From assembly GCA_023898645.1 (NCBI GenBank), contig CP060232.1:270001-302000 (forward strand): a stretch of 32,000 nt of DNA, in the 5' to 3' direction. The stretch is from Candidatus Saccharimonadota bacterium (lineage in GTDB: Bacteria > Patescibacteriota > Saccharimonadia > Saccharimonadales > Saccharimonadaceae). Below the pieces are notes generated by a model. The model was not told the DNA's origin. It ran no database searches and was given only the letters and a program-made list of their open reading frames with translations. Both the position numbers and the translations under genes were made by a program. This document shows positions 11,727-27,996 of the stretch, in pieces; positions within the stretch are counted from its first letter, which is position 1, and each line of letters opens with the position of its first letter.

Positions 11727-13256
11727 CTATATCTCGCGGATGGTTTCTATGTGCGCACCAAGACTGTTGAGCCGGTTGGCAAAATCCTCATATCCACGGT
11801 TGATCGAGTAAACGTCGCGTAATATAGAATCTCCAGGAGCCGCTAGCATGGCTAGCAATACAACGACAGACGGTCGTAATGCTGGAGGTGCCGTGACATC
11901 CGCAGGCTTCCATTTGGTAGGTCCGGTTACATACACGCGGTGCGGGTCGAGAAGTTCCACGGAGGCATTGAGCTTTGTCAGTTCGGTAAAGTAAATTGCG
12001 CGATTTTCGTAAGACCAGTCGTGAATCATCGTACGGCCATTCGCGGTTGTGGCAATAAGGCCCATGAAGGGCAGGTTGTCCATATTGATACCCGGAAAGG
12101 GCAGGGCGTGCAACTTGTCCTTGGCGGCTTTCAGTTTAGAGTGTTTCAAGTGAATGTCTACTAAGCGGGTGTGGCTGTTTTTTGCTAGGTACTCATCACT
12201 CAGCTCGTACTGCAGCCCCATTTCAGCTAGTGTTGCCAGTTCAATTTCCAGGAATTCAATCGGTGAACGCTCTATGGTGATTTCACTTCCAGTAACTACA
12301 CCGGCGGCGATGAAGCTCATAGCTTCAATAGGGTCTTCGCTTGGGTAATATTCGACATCTTTGTTTATGTATGATACGCCGGTGATGTGGAGCGTTGTCG
12401 TGCCGATGCCTTCAATTTTGACGCCAAGTTTTTTCAGAAATACGCACAGGTCCTGAACTGCATAGTTAGCGCTGGCGTTTCTAATTGTCACGGTACCTTC
12501 GTGAAGCGATGCTGCCATGATGACGTTTTCGGTCACGGTGTCACCGCGTTCTGTGAGAACGATTGTGTGATCAACTTTTTTCGGCGAAGACGTTGCGCTG
12601 TAGTAATTAGTGGTCGCTTCTACCTCTAGACCGAAAGGACGCAAGCCAGTCATGTGCGGCTCTACCGTACGAGTGCCTAAGTTGCAGCCACCGGCAAAGG
12701 GTAGGTGAAAGTTGCGGTATTGGTGCAGAAGTGGGCCCAGGAACATGATAATCGTTCGTGTGCGTTTTGCAGCAGCGACGTCCATGTCTTCAAGCTTTAG
12801 TTTCTTAGGCGGGATGATTTCTAGGTCGCCGTCATCGTTGAGCCAGCGGACTTTGACGCCGATACTTTGTAGCACTTCGACGATGCGGTTTACTTCTTCT
12901 ATTTTGGCAACGTGGCGTAGTACTGTTTTGCCATGGTTAAGGAGGCTGGCGCAAAGCAGAGCAACTGCGGCGTTTTTGCTAGTCTTAACCGTGATGTTCC
13001 CCGACAGCTTAGAGCCGCCATGCACGCGAAAGTTAATCTTGCCCGTTTGATTGAGTGTCATGATATCGTGAGACAACACATCGCTGATGCGGGCAATCAT
13101 CTCAAGACTAATGTTTTGGCCGCCTTTTTCGATACGGTTAATTGCGCTCTGGCTAGTACCAAGCGCCTCTGCTAATTGTGCTTGTGTAAAGCCACGATTC
13201 TGTCGACTTTCTTGAATGAGATTGCCGATTTTAAGTTTGTAATCTTGAGGGGTCAT
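11727..13256 (-). CDS. murA: XRE-type HTH domain fused to UDP-N-acetylglucosamine 1-carboxyvinyltransferase (MurA)
   Basis: 509 aa. Residues 10-62 form an HTH (RGFTQAQLAEALGTSQSAINRIEKGGQNISLEMIARISDVL). From about residue 73 the sequence is MurA-like (INFRVHGGSKLSGNITVKTSKNAAVALLCASLL; LPFAGGCNLGTRTVEPHMTGL). The catalytic Cys is at residue 191, which is E. coli Cys115 plus about 76. Confidence 0.85.
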   Translation of the reverse strand: MTPQDYKLKIGNLIQESRQNRGFTQAQLAEALGTSQSAINRIEKGGQNISLEMIARISDVLSHDIMTLNQTGKINFRVHGGSKLSGNITVKTSKNAAVALLCASLLNHGKTVLRHVAKIEEVNRIVEVLQSIGVKVRWLNDDGDLEIIPPKKLKLEDMDVAAAKRTRTIIMFLGPLLHQYRNFHLPFAGGCNLGTRTVEPHMTGLRPFGLEVEATTNYYSATSSPKKVDHTIVLTERGDTVTENVIMAASLHEGTVTIRNASANYAVQDLCVFLKKLGVKIEGIGTTTLHITGVSYINKDVEYYPSEDPIEAMSFIAAGVVTGSEITIERSPIEFLEIELATLAEMGLQYELSDEYLAKNSHTRLVDIHLKHSKLKAAKDKLHALPFPGINMDNLPFMGLIATTANGRTMIHDWSYENRAIYFTELTKLNASVELLDPHRVYVTGPTKWKPADVTAPPALRPSVVVLLAMLAAPGDSILRDVYSINRGYEDFANRLNSLGAHIETIREI

Positions 13257-14814: not shown

Positions 14815-15300
14815 CTAATTACAACCTGTACCGGCTTTGATGACCTGTACTGAGCTGTCAGATCGCTTCGGGTAGTAGACGTTAAGTCCGGTGCTGTTTG
14901 GTGCCGCAGCTGAACAAACCTTGACGTAGTAGTTTTTGCTGGCTGCTGCAGTATTTGCGCTGGCGTAAGAAGGTGCTGCTCCAGTTGATGCAATGTAAAT
15001 AACGCCAAGACCCTGAGGAATTGATGTTGTTGTGGAGTCAGCGTTAAACGCAGTTTTTAGTGTTGCGTCTGAGTTGCCCCATGGGTAACCAGTTGAGAGG
15101 TCAGCATTGACCGCTTCGGCAACTTTGTCGAGAGATTGTGCGTTTGCAGCGTCGGCGCTGTCGTTTGCTTTGGTGGTGACACCGTTGTAGGCCACAATCA
15201 CGATTGCTGCCAAGATGCCGATGACGACGATGACAATCAAGAGCTCAACGATAGTGAAACCGCCTTGCGCTCGCTTGGTTTTAAGATTTGCTAAATTCAT
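14815..15300 (-). CDS. pilA: Type IV (major-type) pilin
   Basis: 161 aa. Prepilin leader MNLANLKTKRAQGG then FTIVELLIVIVVIGILAAI (cleavage G|F, Glu5). C-terminal Cys pair (VKVCS...GTGCN). AAGGGG SD 11 nt upstream. Confidence 0.85.
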   Translation of the reverse strand: MNLANLKTKRAQGGFTIVELLIVIVVIGILAAIVIVAYNGVTTKANDSADAANAQSLDKVAEAVNADLSTGYPWGNSDATLKTAFNADSTTTSIPQGLGVIYIASTGAAPSYASANTAAASKNYYVKVCSAAAPNSTGLNVYYPKRSDSSVQVIKAGTGCN

Positions 15301-16529: not shown

Positions 16530-16606
16530 GCACCCGTAGCTCAGTGGATTAGAGCATCTGTCTTCGGAACAGAGGGTCGTAGGTTCGAATCCTTCCGGGT
16601 GTACCA
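16530..16606 (+). tRNA. tRNA-Arg (anticodon TCG), CCA encoded
   Basis: GCACCCGTAGCTCAGTGGATTAGAGCATCTGTCTTCGGAACAGAGGGTCGTAGGTTCGAATCCTTCCGGGTGTACCA. The anticodon stem TCTGT/ACAGA is perfect and the loop is CTTCGGA. TGGTACAAT promoter at 16491-16499. Confidence 0.85.
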
Positions 16607-16679: not shown

Positions 16680-16750
16680 GCGTAGTGAGAAAAGGAAACG
16701 AAAAGTTCTTTTCGTCCCTTTTTGAGCGGAGGAGCGGAACGAAGTGGAGC
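16680..16750 (+). repeat. Divergent putative copy D of the tRNA-associated element
   Basis: It starts GCGTAGTGA like copies A-C and is purine-rich with GAACGAAG. Two hairpins precede it (16646-16662 and 16662-16680). An internal hairpin ACGAAAAG/CTTTTCGT (16698-16715) is followed by CCCTTTTT. Similarity to A-C is weak. Confidence 0.35.
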
Positions 16751-16811: not shown

Positions 16812-17699
16812 TTAATTACCTAGACTGATACGGATAGTCGCCGTATTTAGTACGTGCTTGCCGTTGATAAAATCGTCTGTACCTACGGTTATTTTGATTG
16901 CTTTGGCCGCTTTTATGAGGTTTTTTGTTGCCGTAGTGCCGTTGTATTCATTGACGATGGGGGTAGAGGTTTCCGGAGACGTATAGTAATCAACCGTGAA
17001 CGAGTCGATGTCTCTCAGTAGGTCGGCGTCAGCGAGTTTGCAGGTTCCGGAGTATGTTCCCGATTTCAAAGCTGCGTTGGAACAAGTCTCGCTTTGGTAG
17101 GGTGTTTTGCACCCCGAGGGATTTGGATTGAGGGTGGCGCAATTACATAAAGTGCCGCCAGTGTAATTAGTGATTGTGCGTCGGTACAGGTCGTACTTTC
17201 CGGTAGTGGTGTTTTTGGCAACGAAATAAACCAGGAGATTCTGGGCAATCGGGCTTACGGAAAAGTCGCATCCACTACCGCTGTCGATAAAGACAGGTAA
17301 GCGTTTGTCGTCCGTGGCGGCTTTATCGGTAGCCGTTGTGGTTGCCATGAGTACGCGATTTGTTTTTTGTCCAGCGTCATAACCTGGCAGTGACGGATCG
17401 TTACCTCGGTATGACCACGATGTGCCGTCGTCTCTACCGAGTGGTTTTGCTACAGCCGCGTCAGTTACAAACCCGCCTGAGTCCATGATTTCTTTTTCGA
17501 TAGACCTTAGCACGCCTCTGGTATTGGTGTCTTGTGATGTTTTGCCTAAGGAGATGACATTGTCGTTATAAAAACCACCAAGTGTTTGCAGCACTACGCC
17601 CGTCAATAGACTGATTACTGTAACGACGACGGCAATTTCGACAATCGTGAAGCCGCTCGATTTATCGTATGAAGTTTGCATGAGTGATGAATTCTCCAT
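16812..17699 (-). CDS. Minor pilin, PilW-like, Cys-rich
   Basis: Prepilin motif ...DKSSG|FTIVEIAVVVTVISLL. Seven Cys in the C-terminal half. The start is ambiguous (TTG 17705, ATG 17699 or ATG 17681) and the gene overlaps the end of the upstream gene. Confidence 0.7.
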   Translation of the reverse strand: MENSSLMQTSYDKSSGFTIVEIAVVVTVISLLTGVVLQTLGGFYNDNVISLGKTSQDTNTRGVLRSIEKEIMDSGGFVTDAAVAKPLGRDDGTSWSYRGNDPSLPGYDAGQKTNRVLMATTTATDKAATDDKRLPVFIDSGSGCDFSVSPIAQNLLVYFVAKNTTTGKYDLYRRTITNYTGGTLCNCATLNPNPSGCKTPYQSETCSNAALKSGTYSGTCKLADADLLRDIDSFTVDYYTSPETSTPIVNEYNGTTATKNLIKAAKAIKITVGTDDFINGKHVLNTATIRISLGN

Positions 17700-18165
17700 T
17701 TCCAAAATTAACGGTTGATACTAATTTGACAATGCCGTCTGTAAAGCTTGTACCTGTGCAGCCATTTGGCGCAAAAGCCGTGACAGTTTGCACCAGTGAG
17801 CTACCCATATTAGCTATAGTACTTCCACTTTCGGCAGCATATCCGTAGTGACCAAATACAGCAGGGTCTGAAGTGTCGATAATATTTTCCCCCCTTTTCG
17901 AGCTTGCATTATTGGCAGTGAGGTCCATCTTGCCAGGGTTGCATAGTAAGTTCGATGGAGGAGATGGGAATTTTGCCAGGTTGGAAAAGGCTATATCGCT
18001 TGCGCGTGCTCGTCTGGCGACGTCGACGCGCTGAGACTCAAGCAGAAGATATGATTGAAAAACGCCAAGGAGAAAGATTGCCAACACAATAATGGTTATG
18101 ATCATCTCGATAACCGTGAAACCTTCTGTGTTGGGTGTGGCAGGGAAAAAATGTCGTTTGTTCAT
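17662..18165 (-). CDS. Minor pilin, PilV-like
   Basis: 167 aa. MNKRHFFPATPNTEG|FTVIEMIITIIVLAIFLLG. AGGAA lies 5 nt before the ATG and 8 nt after the upstream stop. Confidence 0.75.
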   Translation of the reverse strand: MNKRHFFPATPNTEGFTVIEMIITIIVLAIFLLGVFQSYLLLESQRVDVARRARASDIAFSNLAKFPSPPSNLLCNPGKMDLTANNASSKRGENIIDTSDPAVFGHYGYAAESGSTIANMGSSLVQTVTAFAPNGCTGTSFTDGIVKLVSTVNFGNGEFITHANFIR

Positions 18166-18173
18166 ATGTGTTC

Positions 18174-20249
18174 CTAGAATGATAGCGGGTAGTTAAACCC
18201 CGTCTCCGATGTTACGGTGCTGCCTATGTCGCTCGAATTCGTCACGTCGACAGGTGCAGGTACGTTCGTAGCGGTCGTGTTTCCGGTACCGAGCTGACCG
18301 ACGGTATTTTCTCCCCAGCAACCTGTGGCATTATCTGCCACTACGCAAGTTACGTTACCTGCGCTGTCGATGTCAGTAATCGTTTTTCCGCTGAGCCAAC
18401 CAATTGTGGTCGAGTCTTTTACGAATACAGGCACTGGACTAGACGGTGTTGTGCAGAGTTGATTACAGCCAATTCCCTGATAGGAACTATGTTTGCTGTG
18501 GCCGTCGCAATATGTGACTCCTCCGGTGAGGGCGCAAAACAAATCATCGTGCGCATTTCCTGAGGCGAGTGTATACGGATTTCCAAGACTTGTTCCTCCA
18601 TAAAGCGGGCCAGCAGGAGGATTCGAAGTATAAGTTGTCGTTGTATCTGTCGACAATACACGGCACCATTGGTTAGGGTGGCCATTTGATCGACAGTGAA
18701 TTACCGTACATGTCCGTTTTGTGTTTATCGTTGCCGTTCCTCCGCCCCACCAAAAAGCACGACTTGCTGGGCTGGCATTAGTAGCACTGATTGCCGTGAC
18801 GCTGTCTTTGAAAGTGGTTATGGATTGGTAGTATAAAGCACTCGAAACTGCCGCGGGGCGAACGCTCCACAATGCACCCGTCGTGCTAGTCGGCGTAGTG
18901 TTATTTGTGTTCGGGTAGCTGTTGCACGCTGTTGTACGTTGTCCACCCCCTATGGTTTGTTCAACTGTTGAATTGGTCGTGCCGCCTAGTGCGTGAGAAT
19001 TGTTGCCTATCTGACCGACGGTGTTGTCGCCCCAGCAGTATGCTTTGTGATTGTCGCCGATGGCGCACATTGTATCGCTATCTCGTATCTGTGCTAACTT
19101 TTCTACTTTTCTACCCATAAGCGCGCTTGAAGAATCGTATGCGATGGATACAGGAACATTTTTGTCAAAGGTGAAGCCATTACCTAGCTGTCCGTGATTG
19201 CCTTGGCCCCAGCAAGAAACCAGCCCGTCGGTCGTCAGTGCACAGGTGAAATTATTGCCGGCAACTATATCAGTAACGGTTTTATTGTAGAGTGAGCTTC
19301 TTGGTATGCTGGGAGAGCTTTGGCCCGGGCCGTTATAGACTTGCCGCGGTATAGCCGTGGAGCCGGTATTTCCTATGCCTAGCTGTCCGTGACTATTGTC
19401 CCCCCAACAGTAGGCTTTTCGTGTGGCACCAGTTGCGTCGCTGGCGCTGTCTTTTGCAACGGCACAGACGTGAGTCGAACCTACGCTAACCTTTAGGACG
19501 ACTTTCTGGGTACCATCTGAATTTACAAGATACCCAGAGAACGGCAAGAGATTGTAAGACGCCGAATTTTTATGTGCTGTATCGATTGCCTTCGGAAAAA
19601 CACTCTTGTTACCGGGGACGGCGCCGTTTCCTTGGCCTAGCTGTTTATTACTATTGCTTCCCCAGCAGTAGACCCAACCTTCGGCGACGGCACAAGTTGT
19701 CGATCCATTAGTCGATACTTGAGTGACGTTTTTGCTTACTCGTCCTGTCGTGGTAGTTGAAGTCCTGATAATCGTTCTGATGGTTTTACTTACGGATTTA
19801 AATGAAATGCCGTTGGTGCTTATACTGACCGACCCGATTGACGTGATAACGGGTGTACTTGCATTGAGCATCTGAAGCCCCTTAACTTCATAGGTACTTG
19901 AAAACGTCGAATCGTCCGCAACGTTCGACAATTTTTTTACGGATTGGCCCGCGCAGTTTGTCTTTGGTGTGAGCGGCGAGGTGTTTGACCATGATTTTTG
20001 ATTCGCTTTGATACAAGCCTTTGCAGCCGCAACGCCTGCTTGTGCCGCCTCGCGTGCCAGTACGTCAAAGTATTGGTTATTAAGTATCGTACTGCTGTTC
20101 GTAACAGTTTGTAGTGCAACGATACTGACGGTTGAAATAGCCATACCAAGTGTAATGACAATCGGTAGCAAAAAACCGGTACTAGAGTTGCCGTTCTTGT
20201 CAGTTGATTCGGTATGTCGCTTATAGTATGCAATTAACACCTTAAACAT
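18174..20249 (-). CDS. PilX-like pseudopilin N-terminus fused to an RCC1-repeat (beta-propeller-like) domain; putative pilus-tip protein
   Basis: 691 aa. The N-terminus ...NSSTG|FLLPIVITLGMAISTVSIVAL lacks Glu5. Five clear RCC1-type repeats: YCWGSNSNKQLGQGN, YCWGDNSHGQLGIGN, SCWGQGNHGQLGNG, YCWGDNTVGQIGNN, GCWGENTVGQLGTGN. Two degenerate repeats: FWWGGG and YCDGHS. Confidence 0.8.
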   Translation of the reverse strand: MFKVLIAYYKRHTESTDKNGNSSTGFLLPIVITLGMAISTVSIVALQTVTNSSTILNNQYFDVLAREAAQAGVAAAKACIKANQKSWSNTSPLTPKTNCAGQSVKKLSNVADDSTFSSTYEVKGLQMLNASTPVITSIGSVSISTNGISFKSVSKTIRTIIRTSTTTTGRVSKNVTQVSTNGSTTCAVAEGWVYCWGSNSNKQLGQGNGAVPGNKSVFPKAIDTAHKNSASYNLLPFSGYLVNSDGTQKVVLKVSVGSTHVCAVAKDSASDATGATRKAYCWGDNSHGQLGIGNTGSTAIPRQVYNGPGQSSPSIPRSSLYNKTVTDIVAGNNFTCALTTDGLVSCWGQGNHGQLGNGFTFDKNVPVSIAYDSSSALMGRKVEKLAQIRDSDTMCAIGDNHKAYCWGDNTVGQIGNNSHALGGTTNSTVEQTIGGGQRTTACNSYPNTNNTTPTSTTGALWSVRPAAVSSALYYQSITTFKDSVTAISATNASPASRAFWWGGGTATINTKRTCTVIHCRSNGHPNQWCRVLSTDTTTTYTSNPPAGPLYGGTSLGNPYTLASGNAHDDLFCALTGGVTYCDGHSKHSSYQGIGCNQLCTTPSSPVPVFVKDSTTIGWLSGKTITDIDSAGNVTCVVADNATGCWGENTVGQLGTGNTTATNVPAPVDVTNSSDIGSTVTSETGFNYPLSF

Positions 20250-20325: not shown

Positions 20326-20700
20326 TTACTGAAGCGATGCGGCTGCTTTGCTTGGTAGCTGTGCTTTAAGACGCTGTATGTCGACATCTGTGATGATTGA
20401 TTTAAGTGTTTCCCATGCGGTGATTACTTGTTTTGACGCCTCAATCTCTTCTATACCTTCTTTGTCCATGAATTCATGCACGAAATCCTGTTCTAGCTCC
20501 TCTGTTGTCGAAGTTTCGGCACTATAAACGGCCTCCTGAAGTTCGATGGGCAGCAGTCTGGCAAAATCTTCTCGTTCGTATTCACCTAGGCGTTCAGAGA
20601 TACTTTCAACCATGAGATCGAGCACCTCTTCTGCTTCCGTGTACGTAAAACCAGCTTTACGTTGCATAAAATCAATTAATTCTTGGTAGCCCATAGGCAC
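20326..20700 (-). CDS. DUF2267-like protein
   Basis: 124 aa. YQELIDFMQRKAGFTYTEAEEVLDLMVESISERLGEYEREDFARLLPIEL fits my recollection of the DUF2267 pattern (F..V....G.....A...VL..L..RL......L...LP.EL). Strong SD AAAGGAGG. Confidence 0.55.
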   Translation of the reverse strand: MPMGYQELIDFMQRKAGFTYTEAEEVLDLMVESISERLGEYEREDFARLLPIELQEAVYSAETSTTEELEQDFVHEFMDKEGIEEIEASKQVITAWETLKSIITDVDIQRLKAQLPSKAAASLQ

Positions 20701-24542: not shown

Positions 24543-25040
24543 ATAACTAAAAAATTTCTACATTATACGGGTCGATCAGGCTTTAGTATTTTAGAGCTCA
24601 TTATTGTGGTGACAGTTATAGGCGTACTCGCCGGAATTTTTATAGTTTCATATAGCGGCATCCAAGAACGCGGGCGTGATACACAACGTGAATCAGACAT
24701 GCTTGCCGTAAAGAGCCAACTTGAAGTGTATTTTAATGAAAACGGATCGTACCCTACTGCTCAAACAATGACAAGTTCTAACGGGTCTACGATAGCAGGC
24801 GGAAGTGGCATATTAAAGGGACTCAGTGCCGATGCGCTTGTAAACCCACTGGCATCAAGCGGGACGACAAATTCATTGATGGCAATATCAACGGGCAATC
24901 CTCCGAATGATGTCTATTGGTATCAGTCGTACGATAGCGACGGTTATACTATTTGCGGAACAGCACCGTGTGCAAAATTCAAACTTATGTATACAAAAGA
25001 AACTGACGGATCGACCGTTACGTTGTCGAGCATCAATTAA
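24543..25040 (+). CDS. Type IV pilin-like protein whose expected start position reads ATA (non-canonical start or pseudogene)
   Basis: The track starts at GTG 24606, which is inside the pilin helix. Upstream in frame (open from 24513) the sequence reads ITKKFLHYTGRSG|FSILELIIVVTVIGVLAGI, a complete prepilin leader and cleavage site. There is no ATG/GTG/TTG in that stretch. AAAGG lies 8 nt before ATA 24543. C-terminal Cys pair ICGTAPC. Confidence 0.55.
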   Translation: MTKKFLHYTGRSGFSILELIIVVTVIGVLAGIFIVSYSGIQERGRDTQRESDMLAVKSQLEVYFNENGSYPTAQTMTSSNGSTIAGGSGILKGLSADALVNPLASSGTTNSLMAISTGNPPNDVYWYQSYDSDGYTICGTAPCAKFKLMYTKETDGSTVTLSSIN

Positions 25041-26452
25041 TAGGAACGCTTGTACGAACTAACTGTCCATGAGAGAGTGCCGGGTTGGCTTGGGTCAATT
25101 TCGACACCCGAATGGATTTCGGCTGTACCGGTTAATTCCACAGTCTGCCCAATAAGAGCTCCGACATCGGCGGAGTTGTCGAGATTAACCTTTGTCCAGC
25201 GAGCGTAATATTGGGTTTTTAGCGAAGAAGTCGAACCATTTATCAATATAGTACGAAGCGACTTACTGTTGAAGAGGGCTGAGCCTGAAACATCACAACC
25301 ACTGGCAGTCACCGAGCAGGGGTCGGTACTGTAATAGGTAATGACCCTGAAACCAGTTCCGCTTGCATTGGGCGTCAGCTGACCGCTATTGAGAATTTGA
25401 AAACCTGTGCTGCCATCGATGAGAATATGCGGAGGTGTTGTCAGGCCGGCCTGTACGCGTAAGTGTGTCGCTCCAGAGACCGTCAGGTTACCGGTAATCC
25501 ATACATCTCCTGATACTGTGATAGAGCAACTGTTTTGAAGCGTTACATTGCCGATAATTTTTAAATCCGCAGGCCATGTTTTTGTAGTGGAGCCACTACA
25601 ACTAGCCGTGGCGCCTGTTTGGATTTGCCCTGGATTATTGATTGTTTGAGTTCTTGTGGCGCGGTCATCGGTCGGCAGGCTAGACGCTGCGACGGTCCCG
25701 GGGACAAGACCTGGGTTGGCCATGCCGGTGCCGCTTACTTGGTTATTAGCCTTCACCTGACCATAAATGTGTGTGCCCCACGAAGGAATATTAATTGGGT
25801 TTTCATTTTCTCCTGAGTTGCATATGCGCGGGAAGTCACTTCCGCCACTGACGGGGCAGGCTAAATTTGAAACATACGTATCAACGGGATTGCTGGCAGA
25901 GCCTATTTGTGACGTACCTGTCATGGTGATGGGACCATTCGAAAACGCGACTCCGCCACTAACTTTTGATGATCCAGACATATTAAGGCCGCCAACGCCA
26001 ATATATGCAGAAATTGTACCGTCGACTACCGAAGCGCCACTGCCTTTCATGCCGACTTGTACTTTGCTTGTTGATTTAGCGGTCGTACTTGTTGCCGGAA
26101 CGTATGTTCGTCCGTATGCTGTGATTGTTTTTGTCTGGCCGTCAACAGGCGTGGTGACGTCGATTTCATACGTCGTACGGGTTGTCGTGTCGTTGCTTAG
26201 CTCAACTTCACCCACTGGGGCCGTCCAGTCACTATTTGCAATCAGTTGCGTTACTGCGTAGTCCGCGCCTGAGTCGGCGGCTAGTTGTGACTGCAGTTTG
26301 TATGTATTGTGTTGCGTTAGGTTATTGTTTTGAACGACAATCTGCATAGTTGCCACCATGAGAAGTATGATAAACACCGAAGCAATCATCAGTGATAAAA
26401 CCAAAAAGCCCGATTCAGCAGAACGATAAGTAGAGCGTATGTGCCGGTTCAC
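25037..26452 (-). CDS. PilX-like pseudopilin N-terminus fused to a large Gly/Ser/Thr-rich (beta-solenoid-like) domain; putative pilus-tip protein
   Basis: 471 aa with a GTG start 1 nt after the upstream stop. N-terminus RSAESG|FLVLSLMIASVFIILLMVA (no Glu5). Repetitive strands such as IIGNVTLQNSCSITVSGDVWITGNLTVSGATHLRV. Confidence 0.7.
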   Translation of the reverse strand: MNRHIRSTYRSAESGFLVLSLMIASVFIILLMVATMQIVVQNNNLTQHNTYKLQSQLAADSGADYAVTQLIANSDWTAPVGEVELSNDTTTRTTYEIDVTTPVDGQTKTITAYGRTYVPATSTTAKSTSKVQVGMKGSGASVVDGTISAYIGVGGLNMSGSSKVSGGVAFSNGPITMTGTSQIGSASNPVDTYVSNLACPVSGGSDFPRICNSGENENPINIPSWGTHIYGQVKANNQVSGTGMANPGLVPGTVAASSLPTDDRATRTQTINNPGQIQTGATASCSGSTTKTWPADLKIIGNVTLQNSCSITVSGDVWITGNLTVSGATHLRVQAGLTTPPHILIDGSTGFQILNSGQLTPNASGTGFRVITYYSTDPCSVTASGCDVSGSALFNSKSLRTILINGSTSSLKTQYYARWTKVNLDNSADVGALIGQTVELTGTAEIHSGVEIDPSQPGTLSWTVSSYKRSY

Positions 26453-26453
26453 G

Positions 26454-27116
26454 TCAGGTGTTCCTCATCGATACACGAATGAAGTTAGAGATAACAGTGG
26501 GTTTGACGACGGAAGTGTCAGTCATGCTAAGTACGATTTTAACAGACCGAACTTTCGCAATGTCGGCGGTTTGGGTGCCGGTGTTGTCATAAAAAGTATA
26601 TGACACGGAATTGAAGTTATCGGTCAGTTTAACGTCGGCAGGACAATCGGGCGTTGTCGCCGCAGAGGGGCAACTTTGAACTATTACATTGCCTGGCGCT
26701 GATGTGTTCTTTAAAGTTCGTCTGTAAAGCTGCTGGCCGCTACTGTAGTAGATAATCTCATTTCTATAAGGTTCCCCGCTATTTGGATCAATGATGAAGT
26801 CACCGCTGCTATCTTGAGCGGGGATTGATAGTATCAAAACGTTTTCGGAGCCACCGCTTGTCCAGCCACTGGGCTGACTGGAGTCGTTAATGAGGTTGAT
26901 TGGATCAAGGCCGGACGCCATGCGGATATCTTCGGTGTATTTAGCAAGAGCTGCTTGAGAATCTAAGGACAAAGTAGCCTTGTGGTTATTTGAAGAAACA
27001 TCGACGTAAAATCGTAATGAACTAAATACTACAGGCGCAACTAATATACCGATTAGTGTGATGGTAATGACTAATTCGACGACGGTGAAGCCTCGCTCTG
27101 AAAAAGGTGCTATCAT
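26454..27116 (-). CDS. Minor pilin, PilW-like
   Basis: 220 aa. MIAPFSERG|FTVVELVITITLIGILV. ATGA overlap with the upstream gene (27113-27116). Confidence 0.75.
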   Translation of the reverse strand: MIAPFSERGFTVVELVITITLIGILVAPVVFSSLRFYVDVSSNNHKATLSLDSQAALAKYTEDIRMASGLDPINLINDSSQPSGWTSGGSENVLILSIPAQDSSGDFIIDPNSGEPYRNEIIYYSSGQQLYRRTLKNTSAPGNVIVQSCPSAATTPDCPADVKLTDNFNSVSYTFYDNTGTQTADIAKVRSVKIVLSMTDTSVVKPTVISNFIRVSMRNT

Positions 27117-27508
27117 TGCTGGCCAAGCCCATTTTTACTAATTAATGTAGTGTAATGAAATGTTTTTTGTTGCCCTTGCAGTGTATAGGCTATACTCACG
27201 ACAACTTTTTTTATGTCGGTACTCTCTGGGGTTATCGTTATGTCTGCTGAGCTTGGGGTCGATAACGTACTGGGAAGTTCATTAGAAAAATCAGTAGTGC
27301 CGTCTGAAAGGCTGGCGAAACCTTTGCTGCGTAAACTTTCTATTTTTTCCTCAGCGATGTTGTTTATAAGGGTGTGGTCAATGCTGGTTTTATTGACAAA
27401 TCCGGCCGTTGAAATCATGCCGACAATCGAAGGAATGATAATGGCAAATAGAGTAATCGCAATGACTATTTCTACAATCGTAAATCCTGTTTGTTGTTTT
27501 TTTGACAT
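27113..27508 (-). CDS. Minor pilin, PilV-like
   Basis: 131 aa. MSKKQQTG|FTIVEIVIAITLFAIIIPS. Confidence 0.8.
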   Translation of the reverse strand: MSKKQQTGFTIVEIVIAITLFAIIIPSIVGMISTAGFVNKTSIDHTLINNIAEEKIESLRSKGFASLSDGTTDFSNELPSTLSTPSSADITITPESTDIKKVVVSIAYTLQGQQKTFHYTTLISKNGLGQQ

Positions 27509-27579: not shown

Positions 27580-27996
27580 TTATTTTTTTGCTCGCCATTT
27601 GGAATTGTCAAGCGCAAGCCATAGTAGCCACACGACAGGGACGAAAATAGCGAGTAGAACAAACCAGTCTTCCTTGCCAAGTTTTTTGCCTATGCGGTAT
27701 GCGGCTATGTATATAAAGACAGTCGAAACGATGTTAATAAACGGTAGTAGCCCAAGAATTGCCCAGAGTCCCCGCTGGTCTCCGATGACTAGAAATTTCC
27801 ATAGATTGTACATCGGCACCCACGCCGCCCATTGTGGTACTTTGGCTTTTTTGAAAATCTGACCAAGAAGGATTGAGGTTAGTATATAGCCCGCCGCGAA
27901 AATCATGAGCAGAAACAGAAACAGGACGCCCGTAAGTGCGACGGCTGCTGTCGTTTCGTATGACGTATGGATGTGATATTGATCTATGTTATGCAT
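27580..27996 (-). CDS. DUF5684-like small membrane protein
   Basis: 138 aa. IFKKAKVPQWAAWVPMYNLWKFLVIGDQRGLWAILGLLPFIN matches my recollection of the DUF5684 core (IF.KAG.P.W.A.IP.YN...L..I.G.P.WW). Confidence 0.55.
   Translation of the reverse strand: MHNIDQYHIHTSYETTAAVALTGVLFLFLLMIFAAGYILTSILLGQIFKKAKVPQWAAWVPMYNLWKFLVIGDQRGLWAILGLLPFINIVSTVFIYIAAYRIGKKLGKEDWFVLLAIFVPVVWLLWLALDNSKWRAKK

Follow-up and report, generated by a model that had tools for sequence, protein, structure and literature searches.

Our data point toward a minor-pilin module of the PilX2 type that belongs to a saccharibacterial type IV pilus (T4P) and probably displays a propeller at the pilus end for binding of the host bacterium. 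The module consists of three genes in a 32-kb stretch of contig CP060232.1 from Candidatus Saccharimonadota bacterium; this whole stretch is called the window, and all positions are counted from its first nucleotide. The largest gene encodes a protein of 691 amino acids (aa), in which a pilin-like stalk is fused to a seven-bladed propeller of the RCC1 type, and the other two encode small minor pilins. The evidence consists of the architecture and fold class of the 691-aa protein, its linkage to minor pilins, and its homology and synteny with pilX2 of Nanosynbacter lyticus TM7x. A preliminary description of the module, made from the DNA alone, had named the protein a candidate for host recognition. 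This interpretation is supported, and it has already been published, together with a knockout, for the counterpart in TM7x (PMC12206443). The preliminary finding is, therefore, correct but not new, because the same result had already been published for a counterpart from a related species.

Stalk and propeller of the 691-aa protein

The 691-aa protein had been described with five clear and two degenerate RCC1 repeats, and the repeat scan and Pfam both agree. The seven repeats begin at residues 192, 278, 343, 402, 497, 578, and 641. Five of them have the canonical pattern [YSG]CWG...GQ[LI]G, and the degenerate ones read FWWGGG (at 497) and YCDGHS (at 578). Pfam matches to RCC1 (E 1.9e-28) and RCC1_2 (E 4e-21) are above the gathering scores and far beyond chance, and the score for WD40_RLD (123.9 bits) is below the cut-off of 150 bits. 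An AlphaFold2 model, computed with 20 full-length homologs as input (mean predicted local distance difference test [pLDDT] of 77.5, predicted template modeling score of 0.66), has an all-beta domain at residues 169 to 691. With Foldseek, the closest match of this head in the PDB was UVR8 (E 7e-24, template modeling score on the target of 0.80 to 0.84), followed by RPGR, the RCC1-like domains of HERC2, and RCC1. Hence, seven RCC1 repeats close a seven-bladed propeller, as in RCC1-like domains, with two of the blades degenerate. PilY1 was not among the top 50 Foldseek matches listed for the head, which were RCC1-like domains and other propellers, and therefore, the head is an RCC1-type propeller and not one of the PilY1 type. 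Homology of the head to PilY1 was also rejected by Pfam, with no match for PF05567/IPR008707. Furthermore, the absence of pilY1 from the window is borne out by Pfam scans of 27 open reading frames (ORFs), including every ORF of more than 300 aa, which gave no match to the PilY1/PilC family. Pfam, AlphaFold2, and Foldseek thus all reveal an RCC1 propeller, and the same three lines of evidence agree that it is fused directly to a pilin-like stalk.

The N terminus of the 691-aa protein reads ...NSSTG/FLLPIVITLGMAISTVSIVALQTV, where the slash marks the putative processing site and the residue at +5 is not a glutamate (Glu5). A hydrophobic, pilin-like N terminus without Glu5 had been noted before, and the sequence and the alignment of 20 full-length homologs are in line with this. 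Gly25, Leu28, and Pro29 are invariant in the alignment, and the signature G[FYW]xxP is present in 132 of the top 150 representatives of the stalk family. The leader is presumably cleaved at Gly25. AlphaFold2 predicts one continuous helix (residues 28 to 81), followed by a small antiparallel sheet with strands between residues 116 and 163; the leader is modeled with low confidence. In this model, helix and sheet have the lollipop topology of pilins. Residues 31 to 80, in the alpha1 region, are among the most conserved stretches, level with the cores of the blades, and insertions and variation are concentrated between the blades. The idea that the head diverges faster than the stalk was rejected: identities to the nearest homologs are 64%, 58%, and ~45% for the stalk versus 60%, 59%, and ~43% over the full length.

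Does the protein belong to an established pilin family? Compared with the type IV pilin signature (PF07963/TIGR02532), it has the glycine, lacks Glu5, and does not match the N-methyl model. Neither a sequence model nor a solved fold of PilX or GspK is matched, but, as is typical of PilX and GspK, Glu5 is missing and the largest of the three minor-pilin subunits carries an extra domain. The label "PilX-like" in the preliminary description, therefore, holds for position, size, and the missing Glu5 and does not extend to a PilX/GspK model or structure.

Homology to TM7x PilX2 and the stalk family

Grossman et al. (ISME J 2025; PMC12206443) described T4P locus three of N. lyticus TM7x, which comprises pilA2, pilX2, pilW2, pilV2, and pilZ2. 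In that study, PilX2 (TM7x_02980) has a lollipop stalk with a seven-bladed RCC1 propeller. Without pilX2, host binding was 4.6% instead of 10.6%, and deletion of pilA2, pilB2, or pilC2 had the same effect; the pilX2 mutant no longer had a competitive edge over strain BB004, but its competence and motility were normal (PMC12206443). The authors proposed that PilX2 serves the thin pilus T4P-2 as its adhesin, in analogy to PilY1, and also raised a PilY1-like role in priming (PMC12206443).

The supplements of that paper contain primers and no protein sequences, and the primer table was used to locate the gene. An exact-match scan of metagenome contigs with PilA2_Down_R led to contig ODKC01002892.1 (L085), with Ga0210390_10011479 (L084) as the second hit. 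On L085, 6 of 10 primer strings match exactly, and the genomic parts of PilX2_Up_R and PilX2_Dwn_F flank exactly an ORF of 576 aa with RCC1 repeats. The pilin next to it has 141 aa, the length given for TM7x_02975 in Table S3 (PMC12206443). Because the primers bracket the ORF exactly and the 141-aa pilin adjoins it, we regard the ORF, judging from these matches, as pilX2 of TM7x or of a very close relative.

The 691-aa protein aligns with PilX2 of L085 from Gly25/Gly7 through the last blade (window residues 25 to 662, 27% identity, E 2e-38). Encoded next to the module are GlyA, MurA, and MurB, which are 78%, 76%, and 53% identical to those of L085. Judged by GlyA and MurA, the source organism is a Saccharibacterium. 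The gene order on L085 is murA, glyA, pilA2, pilX2, pilW2, pilV2, pilZ2, murB; that of the window is murA, glyA, a pilA-like gene, murB, the gene for tRNA-Arg, W, V, X, where X encodes the 691-aa protein, V the 167-aa pilin, and W the third protein. The pilA-like gene was not mentioned in the preliminary description and is part of the same conserved locus. Its 161-aa product has GspG and PilA-type N-terminal matches and, in an alignment of 67 aa, shares 45% identity with PilA2 of L085 (141 aa); both genes directly follow glyA. Window and L085 contain the same locus in rearranged form, without a counterpart of pilZ2 in the window. Thus, the 691-aa protein has the seven-bladed RCC1 propeller of PilX2, a predicted lollipop helix without canonical PilD signal peptide, homology to pilX2, and, with rearrangement, a place in a locus with a pilA2-like gene and minor pilins. 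In both sequence and position, it corresponds to PilX2 of TM7x.

The two small proteins are pilins by their N termini. The 167-aa protein passes the Pfam cut-off for N_methyl (22.5 versus 21.2 bits), and the third protein, in its 297-aa version, is just under it (20.4 bits, E 3.8e-4). Toward PilV2 of L085, the 167-aa protein has 25% identity (E 9e-13). In the PDB, the family profile of the 167-aa pilin matches only pilin alpha1 helices, and that of the 295-aa version likewise matches pilin alpha1 helices (best E 7e-6) and nothing more specific. NCBIfam matches of both are restricted to the N-terminal 30 to 45 residues and are far under the cut-offs. A specific identity as PilV/PilW or GspI/GspJ is unsupported, with no such model or structure matched by the globular domains. 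Of the labels "PilV-like" and "PilW-like", the generic pilin N terminus (G/FTxxE) stands, and the rest is positional. Since the stalk of the 691-aa protein matches no pilin model or fold and the small pilins match only alpha1 helices, the names PilX-, PilV-, and PilW-like are best taken as analogies in position, size, or missing Glu5 and not as family memberships. The third protein is indeed rich in cysteine, as had been stated, with 6 Cys in the 297-aa version, five of them within residues 187 to 222.

Linkage of the three genes is not a peculiarity of the window. All loci that encode full-length relatives come from metagenome-assembled genomes of Saccharibacteria. Homologs of the 167-aa pilin adjoin RCC1-bearing X genes in L001, L015, L006, L007, and L045, and homologs of the 295-aa pilin do so in L015 (44% identity), L006, L007, and L045; the order in these divergent loci is X-V-W or V-W-X. 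With homologs of both small pilins beside X genes in divergent loci, the linkage is conserved across Saccharibacteria and not a coincidence.

The stalk itself defines a large family. With the stalk profile as query, 1.84 billion representatives yielded 825 clusters (at 50% identity) with E <= 1e-3, 650 of them with E <= 1e-10; in each of the 150 best hits listed, the match begins no later than residue 30. Word-index protein searches gave only 3 hits for the stalk profile and, for residues 1 to 300, mostly generic RCC1 proteins of ~280 to 525 aa, apparently owing to a filter on length; TM7x PilX2 was not retrieved. Among the best 150 stalk hits, 60 have 4 to 9 CWG blades, and a double propeller is indicated for another 26 with 10 or more. 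Ten members without CWG were inspected with Pfam: RCC1 was still found in seven, a lactonase/YncE-type propeller in two, and TIG repeats in one. The stalk module nearly always carries a propeller head. Three of the seven (P0159, P0163, and P0211) have a ricin-B lectin domain inserted within the RCC1 head, which hints at glycan ligands and fits a ligand-binding role of the head.

Several other fusions were observed. Double-propeller versions of 909 to 966 aa with 13 to 14 CWG blades on the same Glu5-less stalk are encoded in L004, L005, L008, and L019 (e.g., L005 9998-12874), downstream of a conserved ORF of ~544 to 620 aa that resembles an ABC-type ATPase and without adjacent minor pilins. A canonical N_methyl N terminus (GFTxxE) is fused to one or two RCC1 propellers in L024 (9671-11236), L026 (9479-11167), L035 (9632-12286), and L050 (9605-11143), with N_methyl confirmed by Pfam for the first three, and therefore, RCC1 heads occur on at least two kinds of pilin anchor. 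The window has a second minor-pilin module (25037-27508, minus strand), with N_methyl pilins of 131 and 220 aa followed by a 471-aa protein. The stalk of the latter is also Glu5-less (G/FLVLSLMI) and 25% identical to that of the 691-aa protein (E 2.6e-4); its head is rich in Gly, Ser, and Thr, is not of the RCC1 type, and has no Pfam match. The 471-aa protein may correspond to PilX1 of TM7x, which has a beta-jelly-roll head. In L001 (9087-12404) and L006 (568-5510), the ORF that precedes the RCC1-bearing X module has an N terminus similar to the DUF5684 protein of the window (27580-27996); L001 also has a response regulator-like ORF upstream. In the window, the position next to DUF5684 is taken by the second, non-RCC1 module; the site of head-bearing modules, therefore, seems to vary from genome to genome.

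All three ORFs of the module were found as described, tightly packed and co-directional; their strand, which had not been given, is minus (Table 1). The gap between the first two genes is 8 nucleotides (nt), and the second and third overlap by 38 to 44 nt. The third gene encodes 297 aa if started from TTG at 17705 and 295 aa from ATG at 17699, as assigned by public gene callers. The terminator-like hairpin is probably the end of the operon. No promoter was found by consensus scan in the 76-nt gap 5' of the 691-aa gene. Beyond this gap, on the same strand, lies a DUF2267 gene (20326-20700, minus strand), which recurs on the independent contigs L081 and L083. MurA of the window (11727-13256, minus strand), an enzyme of the EPSP_synthase fold, carries an XRE-type helix-turn-helix domain at its N terminus, an unusual fusion of enzyme and regulator. 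The same 507-aa protein with this fusion is encoded on L085 (1252-2775, 76% identity), and an ORF in L007 (13105-14622) has a similar helix-turn-helix-like N terminus.

Table 1. Features of the module and its surroundings in the window
Feature	Position	Strand	Basis
691-aa pilX2-type gene (stalk plus RCC1 propeller; modular, minor pilin-like)	18174..20249	-	ORF; Pfam RCC1/RCC1_2; alignment with TM7x-type PilX2
Leader, residues 1-25, basic, ending in Gly25 (putative prepilin-peptidase-type site G/F)	20175..20249	-	Gly25 invariant in 20 homologs
Pilin-like stalk, residues 26-168: predicted 54-residue alpha1 without Glu5, then small antiparallel beta-sheet	19746..20174	-	AlphaFold2; conservation
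Seven-bladed RCC1-type head, residues 169-691: 5 canonical and 2 degenerate, Cys-bearing blades	18177..19745	-	Pfam; repeats; Foldseek
167-aa minor pilin, G/FTVIEM, Glu5 present; counterpart of TM7x PilV2	17662..18165	-	Pfam N_methyl; homologs beside X genes
295-aa minor pilin, G/FTIVEI, Glu5 present, five-Cys cluster at 187-222	16812..17699	-	N_methyl just under cut-off; linkage
Terminator-like hairpin, ~95 nt past third gene	16695..16718	-	Consensus scan: 10-pair stem, then T-rich tail; pattern match only
Major-pilin-like gene, 161 aa, beyond the module, at the position of TM7x pilA2 by glyA	14815..15300	-	N_methyl E 2e-7
tRNA-Arg gene, between module and murB	16530..16606	+	

Proposed display at the pilus end and competing explanations

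Initiation complexes of the GspI-J-K type, in type II secretion systems and T4P, have a topmost subunit that lacks Glu5, and the features of the 691-aa protein are consistent with such a subunit. In our model, the protein would enter the membrane via its long hydrophobic alpha1 helix. Because it lacks Glu5, like the first-assembled GspK and PilX, it is most likely the nucleus on which the two Glu5-bearing pilins assemble into a small initiation complex. The major pilin would then polymerize beneath and so move the putative trimeric complex outward to the far end of the filament, where the RCC1 propeller of ~520 residues would be exposed as the pilus head. Binding of the propeller to a ligand on the surface of the host bacterium may result in long-range tethering ahead of close contact. 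For PilX2 of TM7x, too, the tip position is a putative one.

Several observations weigh against this model. The stalk has no match to N_methyl or PilX_N of Pfam (E <= 10, 15 family members) or to the GspK models of NCBIfam, its profile found no pilin and nothing meaningful among PDB sequences, and Foldseek with a separate model of the stalk found no pilin fold (best E 0.37), although the pLDDT of that model (69.7) makes this a weak test of the fold. A PilD cleavage site was not predicted for PilX2 (PMC12206443). Genes for pilus assembly are not present in the 32-kb window, and the third pilin is similar to TM7x PilW2 in BLAST only at its N terminus. Furthermore, the pilX2 mutant of TM7x keeps its thin pili and has thick pili of altered diameter and length (PMC12206443), which is ill fitting for a simple tip subunit of the thin pilus. 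Since host binding is only halved in this mutant, other adhesins exist. Finally, the location of family members on the pilus or at its tip is something that we infer.

The main rival explanation is kept alive by the stalk without pilin signature and by the thick-pilus phenotype. In this view, the 691-aa protein never joins the filament and is instead a surface protein anchored in the membrane, with an uncleaved signal anchor and the propeller at the cell surface or the pilus base, where it may either mediate adhesion at short range or, like PilY1, prime or regulate pilus assembly. The missing Glu5, the lack of matches to pilin models and folds, the PilD site not predicted for PilX2, and the priming role raised for TM7x next to its pilus phenotype (PMC12206443) would all suit such a protein. 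However, a helix of ~54 residues packed on a beta-sheet, as predicted here, corresponds to the pilin lollipop and not to an anchor of 20 residues. The junction of glycine and an aromatic residue is invariant after the basic leader, and the co-location with Glu5-bearing minor pilins is conserved. In addition, the binding defect is equal in the pilX2, pilA2, and pilB2 mutants of TM7x (PMC12206443). We, therefore, consider a location outside the filament unlikely.

It is still less probable that the propeller is displayed on the pilus but binds something other than the host, such as abiotic or matrix glycans, other epibionts, or DNA, or that it inhibits an enzyme of the host envelope in the manner of BLIP-II. 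RCC1-like propellers are generic interaction platforms, with unrelated ligands for UVR8, RPGR, HERC2, and RCC1, and the ricin-B lectin inserts in some members suggest binding of glycans. BLIP-II is itself an RCC1-like propeller. Contrary to this explanation, the pilX2 mutant of TM7x has a specific defect in host binding and competition, with normal competence and motility (PMC12206443), BLIP-II does not appear among the 50 best structural matches listed, and binding of glycans is compatible with host recognition. The propellers described in a preprint (PMC13622651) are sensors on the host side and are irrelevant to the 691-aa protein.

A cytoplasmic or secreted RCC1 protein unrelated to pili, as suggested by the database names of homologs (P0124, P0127, and similar), "chromosome condensation regulator" and "alpha-tubulin suppressor-like RCC1 family protein", is effectively refuted: these names are misleading, having been transferred from the repeat alone, the conserved leader and hydrophobic helix exclude a cytoplasmic protein, the linkage to pilin genes is conserved, and the TM7x counterpart has a pilus-related phenotype (PMC12206443).

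Returning to display of the propeller on the pilus, it is imaginable, albeit speculative, that the G-[FY]-x-x-P stalk is a Saccharibacteria-wide display scaffold that moves between genomic sites and has its heads swapped, with the type of head and the insertions in its loops setting the host range in the manner of phage receptor-binding proteins. The heads seen on the stalk are single RCC1 propellers, double RCC1 propellers, RCC1 with ricin-B lectin, lactonase/YncE-type propellers, and TIG repeats. If so, the subfamily of the window, in which two blades are degenerate and bear Cys, would have a ligand specificity of its own. Such a scaffold with swapped heads was not claimed in the study of TM7x (PMC12206443).

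For episymbiotic Patescibacteria, host recognition is the central open question, and propeller pilins of the PilX2 type are the best current candidates. The window leaves the mechanism as it was already thought to be and adds a divergent counterpart of PilX2, with 27% identity, remodeled blades 5 and 6, and a rearranged locus. Furthermore, the size of the stalk family and its interchangeable propeller heads offer material to compare the type of head with the host range.

Comparison with known systems

The 691-aa protein resembles PilY1/PilC in that both are large proteins with a seven-bladed propeller as the putative adhesive part, and PilY1 functions alongside a complex of minor pilins that primes pilus formation and afterward remains at the tip. 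The analogy is one of function and was also drawn for TM7x (PMC12206443). In contrast to the 691-aa protein, PilY1 lacks an alpha1 stalk and does not belong to the pilins, and its propeller belongs to PF05567/IPR008707, whereas the head in the window is of the RCC1 type and fused to the stalk.

With GspK, PilX, and ComGG, the 691-aa protein shares the missing Glu5, its position as the largest subunit of a three-gene set, and the extra domain. However, no match to GspK or PilX in sequence or fold was found, and the extra domain of GspK is an alpha-domain inserted inside the pilin fold, whereas that in the window is a C-terminal propeller.

The concept of modular pilins was established earlier by Raynaud et al. 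(PNAS 2021; PMC8179133). As in PilB and PilC of Streptococcus sanguinis, a binding module is attached to the C terminus of a small pilin module for display on the filament, probably at its tip (PMC8179133). The S. sanguinis proteins have the IPR012902 N-methyl motif with Glu5 and vWA or lectin heads; the 691-aa protein has no Glu5 and an RCC1 head.

The closest system is PilX2 of TM7x, from which the 691-aa protein differs in several details. It is 115 aa longer, and its leader has 25 residues instead of 6. It has insertions and additional Cys in blades 5 and 6, both of which are degenerate, whereas TM7x PilX2 has seven clean CWG blades, and the Pro at +4, invariant in the subfamily of the window, is absent from TM7x PilX2 (G/YSLVL). 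The genes are arranged as X-V-W and not as Z-V-W-X, pilZ2 is lacking, the third pilin is not recognizable as TM7x PilW2, and, unlike in TM7x, murB and the tRNA-Arg gene stand between pilA and the minor pilins. In both organisms, however, an N-terminal lollipop stalk that lacks a canonical prepilin motif carries a seven-bladed RCC1 head, minor pilins are encoded alongside with a major pilin nearby, and murA, glyA, and murB are the neighbors.

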